Source of the DNA: Candidatus Sumerlaeales bacterium
Lineage (GTDB): Bacteria; Sumerlaeota; Sumerlaeia; Sumerlaeales; Sumerlaeaceae
Assembly (NCBI GenBank): GCA_038243585.1
Contig: JBBSQY010000019.1
Span: forward strand, 1 to 57,991
Length of the DNA stretch: 57,991 nucleotides
Direction of reading: 5' to 3'
Shown here: positions 30,001-39,000 of the stretch, piece by piece
Layout: each line of letters opens with the position of its first letter
Position numbering within the stretch: position 1 is the stretch's first letter
Made by a program: the position numbers

Positions 30001-33000
30001 GATGCACGCATGCCCTGTCCGTCTGCGGCCTATCCTGATGACCACCTGCGCCATGGTTGCCGGAGCAATACCTGGTGCGCTGGCGACCGGCCCTGGAAGC
30101 GAGCTGCGCGCGCCCATGTTCCTGTGCATCATCGGCGGACTGATCGTGTCGACCTTGTTGACACTCCTTGTGGTTCCCTGTTTCTACAGCGTTGTAGACG
30201 GCGGAACCCGGAAATTTAAAAGCTGGTTGGGCGCGCGAAAAGAGATGCCGGTAGTAGACTCCGAAGAAGTCATGGGGAAATAGCATCCGCTGCCGGGACA
30301 CTTAAAATCAGTTGATCCTAGCCTTTAATAAAGCTCCTGTTAAACCGCATCAAAGCCCGTCTAGATCTCGATGATCAGGTCGTGCATGCGCAACTGCACA
30401 AGAAACGCATCAACGTCCTGTCTGGCCTTATCCTCATCCAAATGTGTCCACTTCTCTTGCAGTTCATGGGCGAGGTCCGCCACAGTTCGTGGGGCAGTCA
30501 ATACCTGCCATAGGTGCGTACCGGCAGGATTCAGCGTGATCGCGTTACGGCTGGCCCGGTGATATATAGCCATCCGATCCCCTGCCAGCGTCGCATCCGC
30601 CATCGGAGAATGCCCGTAACGTCGCTGCTCCATCCCCTCGCTATGCAATTCCATTCTTACCTCTGATTTCACTTTTCTTGATTTTGTTTTTCATCGCGCC
30701 ATTGGTGACTTTGCGTCAAACGTTTTTCATTGGCACTGAGATTGTGTATAGTAGATCATATCTGATTGATAGGATACCTAAAACCATGACGAAAAACCGA
30801 ATTATTGCGCTTCTGTTTACATTAAATGCCCTTCTCATCGGCACTGTATTACTTACCAACAGCGGCTTGCTCAAACAGGATATGTTTACCCGAATCGCAG
30901 GTGCCGCTCCCGCGACCTCAACTACCTCTACAGCCGCGTCCCGCCGCACTGTTCTAGTGGATGCGGCGGAACAGATAGCTCCCAGCGTCGTCTCCGTCGG
31001 GGCTTCGCGCAGCCAGTACTATGTCAGTCCTCACGCGTCATTCTTTCGGGATTTCACCGTTTTTGAAAAGGAGAAAGAGGTGCCGTATCTAGGCAGCGGG
31101 GTCATAGTGGATTCCAGTGGTTTGGTTGTGACAAATTATCACGTGGTCGAAGACGCCAAAGATGTTTTTGTCACACTTGTGGACGGACGTAAGCTGCCAG
31201 GCAAAGTGCTGGACGCAGATGTCGCCCTGGATATTGCTCTTATAAAAGTTGAGGGAACCAATCTCCCCGCCGCAAAACTGGGCAATAGCGAAGACCTTAT
31301 GGTTGGCGAATGGACCCTTGCTATGGGCAATCCATTCGGCGACGTCATTGGCAGCCCCACCCCGACGGTCACCGCGGGGGTGGTTAGCGCCATTAATCGC
31401 AATTTTCGTCCCAGCGCAAATATCCCCAGGGTTTATCTGGACATGATTCAGACTGATGCGGCCATCAACCCCGGTAATTCCGGCGGCGCACTGGTCAACG
31501 CTTCAGGCGAACTTATTGGACTTAATACGTTCATTGTGAGCCGTAGTGGCGGAGCCGAAGGAATCGGCTTTGCCATTCCAATTAACCGAATTAAAGCGGT
31601 AATGAAAGAAATAGTGGATCACGGGAAAATCCGCCCCCGCCTGGTGGATTTCGAAACAATCACTTTGAACACTCGTGTGGGCAAGATGCTGAACACAAAT
31701 GCAGATAAGGGTGCCGTCGTAACTGAGGTCAATCCTGGCGGCCCTGCGGAAAAGGCAGGAATTAAGGTTGGCGATGTCATCACGACAGTTAACGGCGAAA
31801 TGGTAACCGACGCGTCAAACCTGCAACTGAAGGTGTGGTATAATAAACAGGTTGGATCCAGATTCCAGTTTACTATCGATCGCTCTGGTTCGCCGGTAAC
31901 TGCCGACTACGTGCTGGTGGAACCGCCCGCGGGCAATACTGACAACGAGTAGGCATTTGATCTCCTATCGCTTTTAACAACAAAATTACTACTTGGAAAA
32001 CCAAAGCCGCCCCCATTTCAGGGGCGGCTGTTCCAGTTTGGTCATACGCCCACTTTACTCCTCTCGGAAGAAGTGTTCTTGCACTCGTGTTTGTTATAAA
32101 CTCCATTCCTTCAACAGGCATTGAACTCCGGAGAAAAATCATGGTCCGTCACATTTTTAAACTGGCAGGAATTACTGCGACAACAATTGCAATGGTTGCC
32201 ACCGCGACCGCGCAGCAACCGAATATCATCGACGATACGGACGTCGGTTTTTCCACCACCGGAACATGGACTAACGGCACTTACTCCACTGATTTCTACG
32301 GGACCGGCTATGCCCATGCCAACTCCGTCCAAAACGCTTCATCGCCGCCCACGAATGTGGCTACCTGGCAAGTGCCTATTACCGAAACGGGGTTTTACAA
32401 CGTCGCGCAGCATCACACCGCCGGCCCCAACCGGGCTGTCGACGCTCCATACACCGTCGTAACGGACTACGGAGAAAACACCGTCCGCGTCGATCAGCGG
32501 ATCAATGGCGGGCAGTTTAATTCTATTGGCAGTTTCCATTTCAACGCCGGGCAAACGGCGATCGTAAAACTCGGCAACAACACAATAGCGTCCAGTGTCG
32601 TTATTGCCGATGCTGTTCGTCTGACGCGCATAACCACAGAAACCGCCCATAACGAATATCGCTTTTTCTGGGTCAGCCGCTACCAGTGGCCTGATTCGAA
32701 CACGGCGACCTCCCAGGCCGCCATTCGCAACCGCTTTCAAACCGCCGCAGATAACAACTTCAACGCCGTGTTTTTCCAGGTACGAGGTCAGATGGATACT
32801 TATTATCCGTCCCCTTATGAACCGTGGACTTCCGTCTACGGCTGGAGCGATCCCGGCTGGAACCCTCTCCAGTATGCCATCGATCAGGCTCATTCTCGGG
32901 ACATCGAATTCCACGCCTATTTTAACACGCACACAATGACAGCCCCTGTGCCTCCGTCGGTCACGTCCCCGCAGCATATATATAATCTTCACGGCCCCGG

Positions 33001-36000: not shown

Positions 36001-39000
36001 TTACAATGAAAGCGCGATTGAAACCAAAAGCTGCATCGTTTACTACGATGTAACCCACTCTCGCAGCCGCATCCTCGGTCATAATGAAGTACCCGGCGCA
36101 AACCATACGGATCCAGGGCAGTATTGGAACTGGACCTATTACATGAGCAAGTGCAACCCAACGCCTCCACCTGCCGGAGCCAATTATATCGATGACTCGC
36201 CTTCAGCTGCATCCAGCTGGGCGTCATCCACGTCCGCTGCAGATAAATACGGCGCCAGCTATTTGTGGCATTCGACAGCAGCCGTAAGTGATCCTGCATC
36301 GTGGACGATCAGCGTTCCGACCACAGGCAATTACGATATCTCTGCATGGTGGACCGCAGGCGCAAATCGCTCGGCAGCGGCTCCTTATGTACTGCCTGGT
36401 GGCGGCACTGTTACCAAAAACCAGCAGGGCAGCGGTGGGGCTTGGAATCTTCTAGGCACCAAATCGCTGGCCAGCGGCAACCAGACCACACAGCTCTCAG
36501 TATGGGCTGCCGGCGGTTACATTGTTGTAGCTGATGCAGTTAAGTACTTCGGCCCTAAGTAAATCTATCCAATCTGCTTAGTTCATTCCGATGAACTGAA
36601 CATGGATTTTATTAGCGGGGGGAAGCGTCCTCAACAGCACAGAATTCGTTGGATGACGCTTCCCCTCAATTTAGAAGGAGGATTTAAGCTCTCACCAATC
36701 TCTCCCACGCGTACAAGTCTCATCTACGAGAAACACCCTGTAGTTTGTAAAAATAATCAGGTACAGCTGCCATCGCTCGTAAACAATAGCCTAACCCGGC
36801 GGCTTCCCTGAATCTGTATCGCTGCTTTACTGATGGTCATCGGTCATCGGGCGCAAAGAGCGAAACATCTTTACGAAATCCAAATGGATTTAAGGGGTTC
36901 AGAAAGAAATGAAAAAAATTGCAATCGCAATCCTCGGCGCCGCATGCGCCCTTATGGTCAGTGCCGGCTTTGCCCGTACGCCTGATCTGCCAAGCTGCGA
37001 CTCATGGCGTCCAGCTCACTCTGGAAACTACACAAACTCATCCAGGCCGAGCAGCTACCCAATACAGTATGTTGTTATACATAAAGTGCAGGGCTCTGCC
37101 GCCAGTGCCGCATCGTGGTTCCAAAATGCAGCCTGCAACGCTTCCGCGCACTTCATATTTAACAACAGTTCCGGATACTGTTACCAGTCTGTGCTTGAAG
37201 AAGATGTTGCATGGCACGCCGGAAACTGGACCTACAATACGAAATCCGTGGGTATCGAGCATGGTGGTTATGTTACCAGCAACGACACCGCCACGGTCTG
37301 CTACAATGAAAGCGCTATTGAAACAAAGAGCTGCATCATCTACTACGACGTGACCAAGTCTCGCAGCCGCATTCTTGCTCACAGCGAAGTACCGGGCGCG
37401 ACTCACACAGATCCAGGCCAATATTGGAACTGGACCTATTACTTTAGCAAGCTGTAATAGTATTATCAAATAGCACCGATTAAGTGATTAGCCGGAGCCT
37501 CGGCCAATCAGTAACATTGCTCTTTTAATTCTCTTTTTCAGCTGTGGGATAGTCACCGGCCCACAGCCTGAAATCACCCCTGCGGGGAGGCAACGCCTGA
37601 TCGGCAACTGTAACCGGCAACTGGCTGAGCGTTGCCTCCCTCGAATTTCTCGAAAGGAGGATATTGCAAGACCCCGTCGCGCAAATCAACAACGTTAAAT
37701 TTGTGCGCACACTTTGGCCTTCAAGGTCACCGAAGACTACCAGGCAGACTTTGCTACCAATGCCGCCGCCATGTCGGGGGCGACATGCGGAGCCTGTAAA
37801 ATCTATCGCGGCTTTACCAGTGCCTGCCGGCGCTGCGAGGAAAGTCGCGAAACACCGGTGAAACAAAATCCAATGGATTTAAAAAGGGGTTCAACTATAA
37901 TGAAGTGTTTTACTCAAGCAATACTCGGCGCAGCTTGCGTCTTACTAGCCGGCGTCGGCACAGCAGCTACGCCAGATTTATCCAGCTGTGACTCATGGCG
38001 TCCAGCTCATTCCGGGAACTACACTAATTCATCCCGTCCCAGCAGCTATCCGATCCAGTATGTCGTCATCCACAAAGTGCAAGGCTCTGCTGCCAGCGCG
38101 GCATCATGGTTTCAAAATCCCGACTGCAACGCGTCTGCGCACTTCACCTTCAATAACAGCAGCGGATACTGCTATCAGTCTGTATATGAAGCCGATGTCG
38201 CATGGCACGCAGGCAACTGGACTTATAATACTAAGTCCGTCGGTATTGAACATGGCGGCTACGTGACCAGCAATGACACAGCCACCGTGTGCTATAACGA
38301 AAGCGCTATCGAGACGAGAAGCTGCATCATTTATTACGATGTAACTCACTCGCGCAGTCGCATTGTTGGCCATAGCGAAGTACCGGGCGCGACCCATACT
38401 GATCCAGGTCAATACTGGAACTGGTCGTACTATATGAGCAAGTGCAGCACAACCCCCCCACCTGTTGCCAATAGCTATGTTGACGACACCCCTAGCGCAT
38501 CTTCAAGCTGGGCGTCTTCCACGTCCGCGTCAGATAAGTACGGCGCAAGCTATCTCTGGCATTCGACTGCTGCAGTAAGTGATCCAGCGTCGTGGACCAT
38601 TAGTGTTCCAACCAGCGGCAATTATGACATATCTGCGTGGTGGGCAGCAGGTGCCAACCGTTCCCCTGCAGCGCCATATGTACTGCCAGGTGGCGGAACA
38701 GTCACAAAAAACCAGCAGGCTAACGGCGGCAAATGGAACCTGCTCGGAACCAAAAGCCTAAGCAGTGGAAGCAATACCACACAATTATCGGTTTGGGCTG
38801 CCGGCGGTTACATTGTAGTAGCTGACGCAGTAAAATATTACGGTCCTAAATAACCAGCATCAGCGTTAATCGCATCTTAACGGACCGGAAACCGAACTTG
38901 GTTTCCGGTCCTTTTTTATTTTATCAAATCTCTTGCTCAAAGTATTATCCCGATTGCCATATTTGGCCGTACGTTATATAATAGTATGTTGAGCCGCGCT

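Follow-up and report, generated by a model that had tools for sequence, protein, structure and literature searches.

A predicted carbohydrate-binding module, Golvesin_C, on an accessory set of candidate cell-wall hydrolases in a Sumerlaeaceae bacterium

What does the Golvesin_C domain (PF25275) do on the exported enzymes that carry it in Candidatus Sumerlaeales bacterium? The window analyzed here, a stretch of 57,991 nucleotides of contig JBBSQY010000019.1 (GCA_038243585.1), contains a GHL10 gene followed by three tandem amidase genes (Table 1), which an earlier note had offered as an example array (g01410-g01413). Using hmmscan, we found Golvesin_C on the GHL10 protein and on two of the three Amidase_2 proteins, but not on the middle one. 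The domain occupies residues 47-181 of the GHL10 protein, which scores 130.9 bits against the model over two stretches, has a signal-like N-terminus by a hydrophobicity heuristic, and is 24% identical to E. coli DigH over 340 aligned columns (E 3e-24). Amidase copies a and c each consist of a signal peptide, an Amidase_2 domain and a C-terminal Golvesin_C domain of the subclade that we call clade A; they share 75.5% nucleotide identity (911 bp), and their Golvesin_C domains are 86% identical. The mechanical ORF of copy c (37714-38853, plus strand) begins at TTG 37714, with ATG 37900 as the likely start. Copy b stops at the linker, and neither blastn nor tblastn detects a Golvesin_C remnant in the 37457-37900 gap; its nucleotide identity is 75.6% to copy a (476 bp) and 77.1% to copy c (582 bp). 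In a full-length model of copy a (pLDDT 80.5), the catalytic part resembles AmpD (2y2b, TM 0.66 on target), XlyA and PlyL, and H58 and H158 never vary among 22 homologues, while E117 and D168 hardly do. The array lies among genes for envelope glycans (Wzy_C, glycosyltransferases, PMT_2).

Table 1 Genes, domains and candidate elements of the array in the window
Feature	Position	Strand	Evidence
HtrA-like gene, 5' of GHL10 gene	30678-31952
GC-rich hairpin between HtrA-like and GHL10 genes	32005..32029	reported on minus	consensus scan only
Exported GHL10 (DigH-family) protein, 947 aa	32087..34930	+	hmmscan, genome profile search
N-terminal Golvesin_C of GHL10 protein	32225-32629	+
GHL10 domain	32672-33499	+	hmmscan, 111 bits
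CarboxypepD_reg of GHL10 protein	residues 577-652		hmmscan
Second, weak Golvesin_C-like stretch of GHL10 protein	34571-34873		23 bits, below cut-off
Amidase copy a, 317 aa	35609..36562	+	hmmscan: Amidase_2 69 bits, Golvesin_C 82 bits
Amidase_2 of copy a	35756-36121
Clade-A Golvesin_C of copy a	36203-36544
Amidase copy b, 182 aa (signal peptide and Amidase_2 only)	36909..37457	+	hmmscan
Amidase copy c, 317 aa from ATG 37900	37900..38853	+	Amidase_2 72 bits, Golvesin_C 83 bits
Amidase_2 of copy c	38047-38412
Clade-A Golvesin_C of copy c	38491-38835
Terminator-like hairpin at array end, 13-bp stem then T run	38882..38911	+	consensus scan only

Golvesin_C is the module catalogued as CBM6-CBM35-CBM36_like_2 (IPR033803, cd14488), and homology and fold support its assignment as a non-catalytic beta-sandwich carbohydrate-binding module (CBM) of about 130 residues. 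A profile of 31 copies from the genome matches residues 908-1037 of a Paenibacillus xanthan lyase (6f2p) over all 129 profile positions (E 4.8e-37), with weaker matches to CBM35 (2w3j, 1.3e-4; 2vzp, 0.013). The AF2 model of the copy a domain alone (pLDDT 94.7) has a predicted CBM35/CBM6-like fold: Foldseek places 6f2p at the top (TM 0.82, 33% identity), followed by CBM35/CBM6 entries (2w1w, 2w47, 2vzp, 2cdp, 1uxz) at TM 0.6-0.7 and probability 1.00. With only 15-20% identity to these CAZy families and profile E values from 1e-4 upward, Golvesin_C is related to them at the superfamily level without belonging to either.

Homologues of the module have been studied in bacteria, so the earlier statement that its bacterial role is undescribed does not hold. 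The terminal module of the crystallized xanthan lyase is described as a further xanthan-binding module that is unclassified in CAZy, and deletion of the binding modules lowers the activity of that enzyme (PMC10881899). On a 609-glycan array, isolated IPR033803 modules from two Bacteroides lectins, Cbeg4 and Cbeg5, recognized glycans that have Gal-b1-3GlcNAc-b1-2Man-a1-3Man in common (PMC9166713). The same source assigns these modules to a family shared with golvesin and the Bacillus GL1 xanthan lyase; their equivalence with PF25275 rests on that statement and on the common xanthan-lyase homologue, and the PF25275 model also matches in Bacteroides thetaiotaomicron. In these sources, xanthan and the N-glycan motif are the only measured ligands of Golvesin_C homologues. 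A published supplementary table of IPR033803 proteins lists 973 occurrences of the module together with PF01510 (263), PF01520 (67), PF02638 (75) and PF01551 (20), and includes proteins from other phyla that join amidase, GHL10 and module in one polypeptide; the text of that paper is silent on amidase, GHL10 and M23 partners. These partners are very frequent across bacteria, Actinobacteria and Firmicutes included. Elsewhere the module also accompanies rhamnosidases, an RHS toxin, a cytochrome and RCC1 proteins, and many proteins carry tandem arrays of 3-14 copies, among them a Salinithrix amidase, from outside the phylum, with five.

We then counted the module across the genome. PF25275 has 36 matches, 33 of them above cut-off, spread over 30 ORFs; 28 of these ORFs pass the gathering score, in agreement with the 28 genes counted before, and L008 (26.2 bits) and L027 (29.4 bits) fall below it. 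The partners are Amidase_2 (3), Amidase_3 (5), M23 (2), SpoIID (1), GH25 (1), Polysacc_deac_2 (1), NAGPA (3), GHL10 (5), Beta-lactamase2, Peptidase_C39_2, FAD_oxidored and Exo_endo_phos (1 each) and Thioredoxin_7 (2, weak), while three ORFs have no partner. A peptidoglycan-related catalytic domain (Amidase_2/3, M23, SpoIID, GH25, deacetylase, NAGPA or, counted in, GHL10) is present in 21 of the 30. The tag is carried by 3/6 Amidase_2 ORFs above cut-off, 2/6 M23 and 5/8 GHL10; the first two shares repeat the earlier figures, and that of Amidase_3, previously given as 4/7, becomes 5/8. The rank of third commonest domain is consistent with the comparators ABC_tran (48 matches), N_methyl (44) and Response_reg (27), but these three families leave it unproven. 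Some partners had been held against wall specificity. GHL10 no longer counts, being the family of the peptidoglycan-degrading DigH, and the 'xanthan lyase' label on the GHL10 proteins is an annotation inherited through the common binding module. The FAD_oxidored partner (L006) still argues against a purely wall-specific module, and Exo_endo_phos, Thioredoxin_7-like, Beta-lactamase2 and Peptidase_C39_2 are further partners with no relation to the wall.

Golvesin_C is the sole recognizable accessory binding module on the wall hydrolases of this genome. LysM occurs in one gene and SPOR, as two domains, in one gene, as noted before, and neither lies on a hydrolase. The reported absence of SH3_3 needs amending, since the M23 protein L001, itself tagged with Golvesin_C, has a weak match (34.2 bits with hmmscan, 23.5 bits in a separate SH3_3 search), and its counterpart L047 in the relative G012 reaches 46.3 bits. 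No other Pfam wall-binding domain was found on nine untagged amidase and M23 proteins or on three untagged GHL10 proteins. Wherever the N-terminus of a tagged protein is complete (29 proteins), it resembles a signal peptide by the hydrophobicity heuristic. The genome encodes Omp85 and LpxC, and the cell envelope is thus diderm, so a signal peptide alone would deliver the tagged enzymes to the cell's own periplasm and wall.

Phylogenetic analysis reveals a well-supported subclade, described here for the first time, that tags at least eight catalytic domains, always at the C-terminus. Clade A has an SH-aLRT of 98 in a 70-row tree and 84/83 in a 31-row tree. Its members are 44-86% identical to each other and 16-42% to the remaining domains, and its specific invariant residues include W64 and W115. 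Such identity and invariant tryptophans over eight catalytic families argue for one conserved ligand of the clade-A modules. Nine of the eleven clade-A proteins belong to peptidoglycan-acting families (Amidase_2, Amidase_3, M23, SpoIID, GH25 and one GHL10), and the other two (C39_2, Exo_endo_phos) are no known wall enzymes.

The tagged enzymes come on top of an untagged complement. Golvesin_C is present in 12/12 family relatives, as reported previously, at 9-38 matches per genome, and the expansion, a new observation, is family-wide. Among the 74 other genomes of the phylum, 55 contain it (54 in the earlier count) and 19 lack it, whole families among them; the proposal that it replaces LysM, SH3 or SPOR as the phylum's main wall- or glycan-anchoring module therefore keeps its carbohydrate-binding part and its place on the wall hydrolases but loses its phylum-wide scope. 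The 19 genomes without Golvesin_C have 1-4 Amidase_3 matches (median 2), as against a median of 7 in the 48 genomes with at least six Golvesin_C matches, and the two numbers correlate across the phylum's genomes (Spearman's rho 0.74, kinship ignored). The present genome has three untagged and five tagged Amidase_3 genes, and the small tagged proteins lack a 50-60-residue insertion common to E. coli AmiC and the untagged L051. We take this insertion to be the autoinhibitory helix. Thus, tagged amidases have been added to a core of two to three untagged ones, a pattern not described before, which is somewhat easier to reconcile with use on walls other than the growing sacculus, such as those of dead or foreign cells, than with housekeeping. 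In the distant, single-contig relative G012, which has 22 Golvesin_C matches, 10-11 of the 19 tagged ORFs are wall enzymes; non-wall partners include S8 and M1 peptidases, and the architectures small Amidase_3 plus tag, M23 plus SH3_3 plus tag and Beta-lactamase2 plus tag recur.

The best explanation overall, and one that we consider somewhat probable, is that Golvesin_C is a wall-glycan-holding CBM on accessory wall hydrolases. It would keep an exported enzyme attached to a glycan of the cell wall, in the simplest case the GlcNAc-MurNAc backbone, and thereby increase the concentration of substrate around it, as LysM, SPOR, SH3b and PG_binding_1 do on wall hydrolases elsewhere; these domains and AMIN have the same proposed role, the non-catalytic placing of hydrolases on the sacculus, with unrelated folds and no homology. 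The position corresponds as well: in E. coli AmiD a C-terminal binding domain comes after Amidase_2, and AmiC joins AMIN to Amidase_3. The module has grown to about 10-38 copies per genome in this family of bacteria, and clade A has been shuffled onto its catalytic domains, giving an accessory set over a small untagged core. A wall glycan is a fairly plausible ligand; that this ligand is peptidoglycan itself we propose tentatively, and an exogenous wall as substrate is conceivable to a similar, lesser degree. A sugar-binding module known from xanthan lyase and gut Bacteroides lectins has multiplied here and is carried by most of the extra wall-cutting enzymes. In the Paenibacillus nanensis xanthan lyase PXL (PDB 6F2P), the terminal module, homologous in sequence and fold, is likewise attached to the C-terminus of an exported enzyme that degrades a polysaccharide, but it follows a PL8 lyase and CBM84, whereas here the partners are peptidoglycan amidases, peptidases, a muramidase and GHL10. 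Cbeg4 and Cbeg5 are secreted proteins that contain fn3 domains, a feature shared by several large proteins here; unlike the enzyme-fused modules, they are non-enzymatic lectins for a host N-glycan motif (PMC9166713).

Other readings weigh the same observations differently. The tagged hydrolases may never leave the periplasm and act there on the cell's own sacculus, remodeling it during growth, septum splitting and turnover and digesting no foreign wall, with Golvesin_C substituting for the LysM, AMIN, SPOR and PG_binding_1 of other lineages. The diderm envelope, with Sec-type signals only, the near absence of LysM and SPOR, and the recurrence of tagged architectures in G012 are consistent with this; E. 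coli AmiD has the same layout as the tagged amidases, with a weak PG_binding_1 match where the tag sits, and DigH acts at the septum in E. coli (PMC12288456). However, phylum genomes devoid of the domain get by with their few Amidase_3 genes, the tagged ones being added to a similar untagged core, the small tagged Amidase_3 proteins lack the AmiC/L051 insertion, and the window amidase subfamily is patchy and tandemly duplicated, so we regard such a role as not very likely. A producer's own capsule, EPS or LPS glycan could instead be the ligand, Golvesin_C tethering varied exported enzymes of which wall hydrolases are the largest cargo class. Homologues, as the two sources present them, have measured ligands other than wall polymers, namely one acidic exopolysaccharide and one complex glycan, the partner chemistry is wide (oxidoreductase, phosphatase/nuclease fold, thioredoxin-like proteins, peptidases), tandem arrays recall adhesins and surface proteins, and the window lies among envelope-glycan genes. 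But well-separated domain clades follow partner class, which suggests several specificities instead of one common anchor, and the amidase, GHL10 and M23 partners recur in Actinobacteria and Firmicutes with different surface chemistries; we consider this unlikely.

Lower still in probability is the absence of any common function, where Golvesin_C would be an adaptable CBM scaffold, with copies that recognize many unrelated sugars, and its abundance on wall hydrolases would stem from lineage-specific domain shuffling. CBM6/CBM35 relatives do have very different ligands, judged from structure entry titles, identity between clades is low, and the wall-hydrolase fusions arose in several separate clades. 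This sits poorly with the similarity and invariant tryptophans of clade A, and recruitment to one enzyme class, repeated independently, in itself points to a functional fit. We also considered inflation of the count by strain duplicates of a mixed bin, a concern raised earlier, or by spurious HMM matches. Completeness of the bin is 89.7% and contamination 3.6%, and a second Omp85 copy lies on a very small contig. Yet the identities of the tandem copies (75.5-77.1% at the nucleotide level) and of the domains (16-86%) indicate old paralogues, no near-identical Golvesin_C copies were seen on different contigs, the single-contig G012 and all 12 relatives also carry many matches, the best scores are as high as 130 bits, and the model confirms the fold. 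We therefore reject this explanation as extremely improbable.

The holding of wall hydrolases on wall glycan, our preferred reading, gives the array itself a possible division of labor. The three window amidases, putatively zinc-dependent and of the AmpD/AmiD type, would remove the stem peptides and leave denuded strands for the DigH-like GHL10 glycosidase to cut. In E. coli, DigH degrades the denuded peptidoglycan glycans left by amidases (PMC12288456), and the window likewise encodes amidase and GHL10 side by side. Against the GHL10 model, E. coli DigH itself obtains 453 bits. The likeness has limits: the window protein shares only the 24% identity with DigH, and the window amidase has no BLAST similarity to AmiD. 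Nor is the adjacency conserved in relatives. The window amidase subfamily occurs in 2/12 of them (E 1e-10), the sister genome G007 has a GHL10 orthologue (66% identity) and no amidase of this subfamily, and in G011 the GHL10 gene and a window-type amidase lie about 17-20 kb apart.

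The window holds a gene array that carries Golvesin_C (Pfam PF25275, also CBM6-CBM35-CBM36_like_2, IPR033803 or cd14488). A GHL10 gene and three paralogous Amidase_2 genes (copies a, b and c) all lie on one strand. The three window proteins that carry the domain, hereafter tagged proteins, all exceed its gathering cut-off of 31.6 bits. Specifically, the GHL10 protein reaches 130.9 bits for the whole protein, next to 111 bits for GHL10, and has a second, weak Golvesin_C-like stretch (23 bits) near its C-terminus. Each amidase shows a signal-peptide-like N-terminus and an Amidase_2 domain of 69-73 bits. 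With 75.5-77.1% nucleotide identity among them, the three copies are old paralogues and too divergent for co-assembled strains, which argues against reading the copy number as a bin artefact and against the suspicion in the earlier note that part of its 28 tagged genes are strain duplicates. Copy b is a natural tag-less paralogue with otherwise 77% protein identity to its neighbours and can serve as a built-in control for what the tag does; a search of the sequence 3' of it found no Golvesin_C-like remnant. The array sits among ordinary chromosomal envelope and metabolic genes, including MurB, Wzy_C, glycosyltransferases, HlyD-AcrB, an HtrA-like protease, a response regulator and OtsAB, and no phage genes were found in its surroundings. 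Two untagged genes beside it, for an M23 peptidase and a polysaccharide deacetylase, bring the wall-related genes on the contig to six.

Features of the Golvesin_C array and its flanks on contig JBBSQY010000019.1
Feature	Position	Strand	Description
Untagged M23 peptidase	24308-25600		Directly upstream of HlyD-AcrB pump genes
GC-rich hairpin	32005-32029		Before the array
GHL10 protein, 947 residues	32087-34930	+	N-terminal Golvesin_C (32225-32629), GHL10, CarboxypepD_reg (hmmscan)
Amidase copy a	35609-36562	+	Amidase_2, then C-terminal Golvesin_C (82.3 bits; clade-A module 36161-36559)
Amidase copy b	36909-37457	+	Amidase_2 only; ends at the linker
Amidase copy c	37900-38853 (mechanical ORF from 37714)	+	Amidase_2, then C-terminal Golvesin_C (83.4 bits)
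Strong terminator-like hairpin	38882-38911		Behind the array
Untagged Polysacc_deac_1	43897-45036		5 kb downstream of the array

Sequence and model comparisons place Golvesin_C in a known family of carbohydrate-binding modules. Its predicted structure (pLDDT 94.7) is all-beta with 11 strands and superimposes on the terminal module of the Paenibacillus nanensis xanthan lyase 6F2P with a TM score of 0.82. A profile built from 31 copies of the whole genome (G000) matches residues 908-1037 of the same lyase at E 4.8e-37. CBM35 entries are matched weakly by this profile (best 2w3j, E 1.3e-4; 2vzp, E 0.013), and structural alignments with CBM35 and CBM6 give TM scores of 0.6-0.7 at 15-20% identity; the relation to these CAZy families is thus at the superfamily level only. 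The domain is not the xanthan-binding CBM84: sequence similarity is confined to a 10-bit stretch on residues 799-883 of 6F2P, the module preceding the terminal one, no PspXan9 entry is among the 20 profile matches at E up to 1, and MiXBM (7ehg) resembles it in fold alone (TM 0.67). Nor is it a secretion or sorting signal such as a T9SS C-terminal domain, since it is N-terminal, internal or tandem in many proteins. At E up to 0.001 the family numbers 18,722 representative proteins, many of which carry 3-14 copies in tandem. A search of the ESM Atlas yielded nothing beyond more Golvesin_C clusters, and NCBI protein names after Golvesin_C are already in use.

The earlier note called the bacterial role of the domain undescribed, a view that two sources contradict. 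Excerpts of Cohen et al. 2022 (PMC9166713) place golvesin, the Bacillus GL1 xanthan lyase and Bacteroides Cbeg4 and Cbeg5 together as sharing IPR033803, and show that the isolated Cbeg4 and Cbeg5 modules bind Gal-b1-3GlcNAc-b1-2Man-a1-3Man glycans on a 609-glycan array. A review, likewise in excerpt (PMC10881899), describes the terminal module of the 6F2P lyase as an additional, unclassified xanthan-binding module and reports that binding-module deletion lowers activity. The measured ligands, all from homologues, are therefore xanthan and an N-glycan motif.

HMM matches, fold and conserved residues agree in assigning the window amidases to the Amidase_2 zinc amidases of the AmpD/AmiD/PGRP/T7-lysozyme type. 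A structure search with the model returned AmpD (2y2b), XlyA (3rdr), PlyL (1yb0) and AmpDh2 (4bj4). Among 22 amidase homologues two residues, H58 and H158, never vary, and at least 90% keep E117 and D168; by comparison with AmpD, these four would be the zinc ligands and the catalytic Glu. At the sequence level, a phmmer search of PDB sequences with the amidase half had no match at E 0.001, and BLASTP detected no similarity between a window amidase and E. coli AmiD. The window GHL10 protein groups by sequence with the GHL10 (DigH/YddW) family: E. coli DigH is itself a GHL10 protein (453 bits), and the two match pairwise at E 3e-24. E. coli DigH degrades the denuded glycans that amidases leave, according to excerpts of PMC12288456. 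NCBIfam holds no model that names the tagged proteins; it gave only weak, sub-cut-off matches to AmpD, CwlD and M23-family models, and none for the GHL10, GH25 and FAD proteins.

Across G000, PF25275 has 36 matches, 33 of them above the cut-off, in 30 ORFs, and 28 of these ORFs pass by hmmscan. Of the three abundant families used for comparison, two are commoner than Golvesin_C, ABC_tran with 48 matches and N_methyl with 44, and one is rarer, Response_reg with 27. The partners are Amidase_2 (3), Amidase_3 (5), M23 (2), SpoIID (1), GH25 (1), Polysacc_deac_2 (1), NAGPA (3), GHL10 (5), Beta-lactamase2 (1), Peptidase_C39_2 (1), FAD_oxidored (1), Exo_endo_phos (1) and weak Thioredoxin_7 (2), and three ORFs have no partner. 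With GHL10 counted, 21/30 tagged ORFs are wall-related. Seen from the enzymes, the tag is present on 3/6 Amidase_2, 5/8 Amidase_3, 2/6 M23 and 5/8 GHL10 ORFs. LysM and SPOR are each present once, the former on an L,D-transpeptidase, and no other Pfam wall-binding domain was found on the nine untagged amidases and M23 proteins or the three untagged GHL10 proteins. The counts in the earlier note hold up with small corrections, among them the Amidase_3 share and SH3_3, which it had as absent: this domain is weak in the tagged M23 protein L001 and clear in its counterpart L047 of G012, a single-contig relative from another genus.

In the lineage the domain is widespread and expanded. All 12 relatives in Sumerlaeaceae have 9-38 matches, and 55 of the 74 other genomes of the phylum carry it, with a range of 0-47 matches and whole families without it. 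In a tree, the copies of G000 form clades that track the partner class. Clade A (14 rows, always C-terminal, SH-aLRT 98 with outside sequences added) unites the domains of the window amidases with those of another Amidase_2, two small Amidase_3, M23, SpoIID and GH25 proteins, and also holds those of one GHL10 protein, a C39_2 peptidase and an Exo_endo_phos protein. The large Amidase_3-fn3 proteins make up another clade (support 99), and NAGPA and thioredoxin-like proteins a basal one. Identity is 44-86% within clade A and 16-42% to the remaining copies. Seven positions are invariant in clade A only, including W64 and W115, and these clade-specific residues are candidate ligand contacts. The window amidase subfamily itself is patchy: at E 1e-10 it is found in just 2/12 relatives, and it forms more than 20 clusters at 90% identity in metagenomes.

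The pairing of Golvesin_C with wall hydrolases extends beyond this genome. G012 has 19 tagged ORFs, of which 10-11 are wall-related, and outside the phylum the domain occurs on GH25-fn3 proteins. P0002, an amidase of 1100 residues from the Firmicute Salinithrix halophila, contains CBM_35, five tandem Golvesin_C and Amidase_2, a layout reminiscent of the repeat-based anchors by which Gram-positive autolysins hold to the wall. In the tree, the repeats of the Salinithrix protein and the domains of the GH25-fn3 proteins fall elsewhere, so wall hydrolases recruited Golvesin_C several times. The supplementary table of PMC9166713, whose figures are occurrences rather than de-duplicated proteins, lists PF01510 263, PF02638 75, PF01520 67 and PF01551 20 times, against 973 for IPR033803, and includes polypeptides in which an amidase, GHL10 and the IPR033803 module are fused. 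Amidases, GHL10 and M23 are thus very frequent partners of Golvesin_C across bacteria, and the link is real and wider than Sumerlaeota. The main text of PMC9166713 contains no mention of amidase, peptidoglycan or cell wall, and among the golvesin papers listed this paper is the only one on bacteria, as judged by title and the start of the abstract. The literature searched yielded no description of the module on wall hydrolases, and for CBM35 with a peptidoglycan hydrolase or autolysin no CBM35 was among the matches listed. The association is therefore tabulated, yet we found no discussion or test of it in the literature searched. What is new here is the family-wide expansion and the attachment of a single subclade, as a C-terminal tag, to eight catalytic families, a variant of a known theme. 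Supplementary file 2 of PMC9166713 also holds GHL10 proteins with cd14488 from a Sumerlaeota bin that UniProt names 'Xanthan lyase (EC 4.2.2.12)' and that have no lyase domain; the name was likely propagated through the shared binding module. Separately, Golvesin_C is part of some RHS-repeat proteins whose C-terminal domains are of toxin type (P0004 and Atlas row 10), and Ntox35 is present in 16% of the members of one Golvesin_C Atlas cluster, which suggests a use in contact-dependent or secreted polymorphic toxins.

The tagged hydrolases could be housekeeping enzymes or form an accessory set. A 50-60-residue insertion, which we presume to be the autoinhibitory helix of division amidases, aligns between E. 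coli AmiC and the untagged L051 and is absent from the tagged Amidase_3 proteins L009, L010 and L035, so that the latter would not be regulated AmiA/B/C-type division amidases. In the 19 phylum genomes that lack Golvesin_C, Amidase_3 matches number 1-4 (median 2), compared with a median of 7 in the 48 genomes with at least six Golvesin_C matches; over 75 phylum genomes the two numbers correlate with rho 0.74, a descriptive value because kin are not independent. Of the eight Amidase_3 genes in G000, five are tagged and three are not. This excess, the missing AmiC-like insertion and the patchy window amidase subfamily together favour an add-on, unregulated set. Two points speak against an extracellular role. 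Both Omp85 and LpxC are present in G000, so a signal peptide alone would lead to the organism's own periplasm, and a search for conserved synteny of the GHL10-amidase cassette in relatives found none, which further disfavours such a role for the array. The 44 N_methyl matches in this 3.4-Mb genome, several of them clustered on contigs C45, C76, C52 and C67, point to a large pseudopilin repertoire, which may be relevant to the passage of exported enzymes through the outer membrane. Omp85 (BamA-like) has two matches, at C2:113550-114428 and, on a very small contig, C95:392-1270; the second may represent a genuine paralogue or stem from the 3.6% contamination.

The most likely mechanism is that Golvesin_C would direct exported hydrolases to wall glycan. 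In the window, the three AmpD/AmiD-fold amidases would strip the peptides, and cleavage by the predicted DigH-like GHL10 glycosidase would follow. That clade A is the first CBM6/35-fold peptidoglycan binder and the common address label of a bacteriolytic set that these uncultured diderms export to digest the walls of other or dead bacteria seems to us rather improbable. Such a set would, with the same low expectation, comprise amidases, M23, a muramidase, SpoIID, the DigH-like glycosidase, a nuclease/phosphatase-fold protein and a peptidase, and wall recycling or bacterivory would then be a defining trait of the lineage. Should clade A bind peptidoglycan, a new fold would join LysM, SPOR, SH3b, AMIN, PG_binding_1 and CW_binding among the few wall-targeting modules. 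Such binding would give a function to a domain in about 18,700 protein clusters, offer a portable targeting module for engineered lysins and correct the 'xanthan lyase' names that annotation pipelines put on the GHL10 proteins of the lineage. It would also indicate bacterial wall material as a substrate of Sumerlaeota, which excerpts of PMC8092238 describe as a scavenger of chitin, cellulose and protein. If Golvesin_C instead binds a surface glycan of the producer, this would be a new kind of non-covalent surface anchoring in a diderm phylum.

Several individual tagged proteins deserve mention. L001 (G000 C1:66093-68153) and L047 of G012, M23 proteins with SH3_3 and a degenerate Golvesin_C, are conserved between two genera and are the only case here of a classical wall-binding module together with Golvesin_C. 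L002 (G000 C2, 47191-48813), one of the ORFs without a partner, overlaps in another frame with L058 (48561-50681), which has fn3 and weak Amidase_3 and FlaA matches. The two look like one large Amidase_3-type gene, comparable to L007, L022 and, in G012, L038, split by a frameshift that could be a sequencing error or mark a pseudogene. L018 (G000 C32:2-5323), cut by the contig end, has more than 1773 residues with GHL10, three fn3, four Golvesin_C and two HYR domains, and similar giants are found in G012 (L030 and L046).
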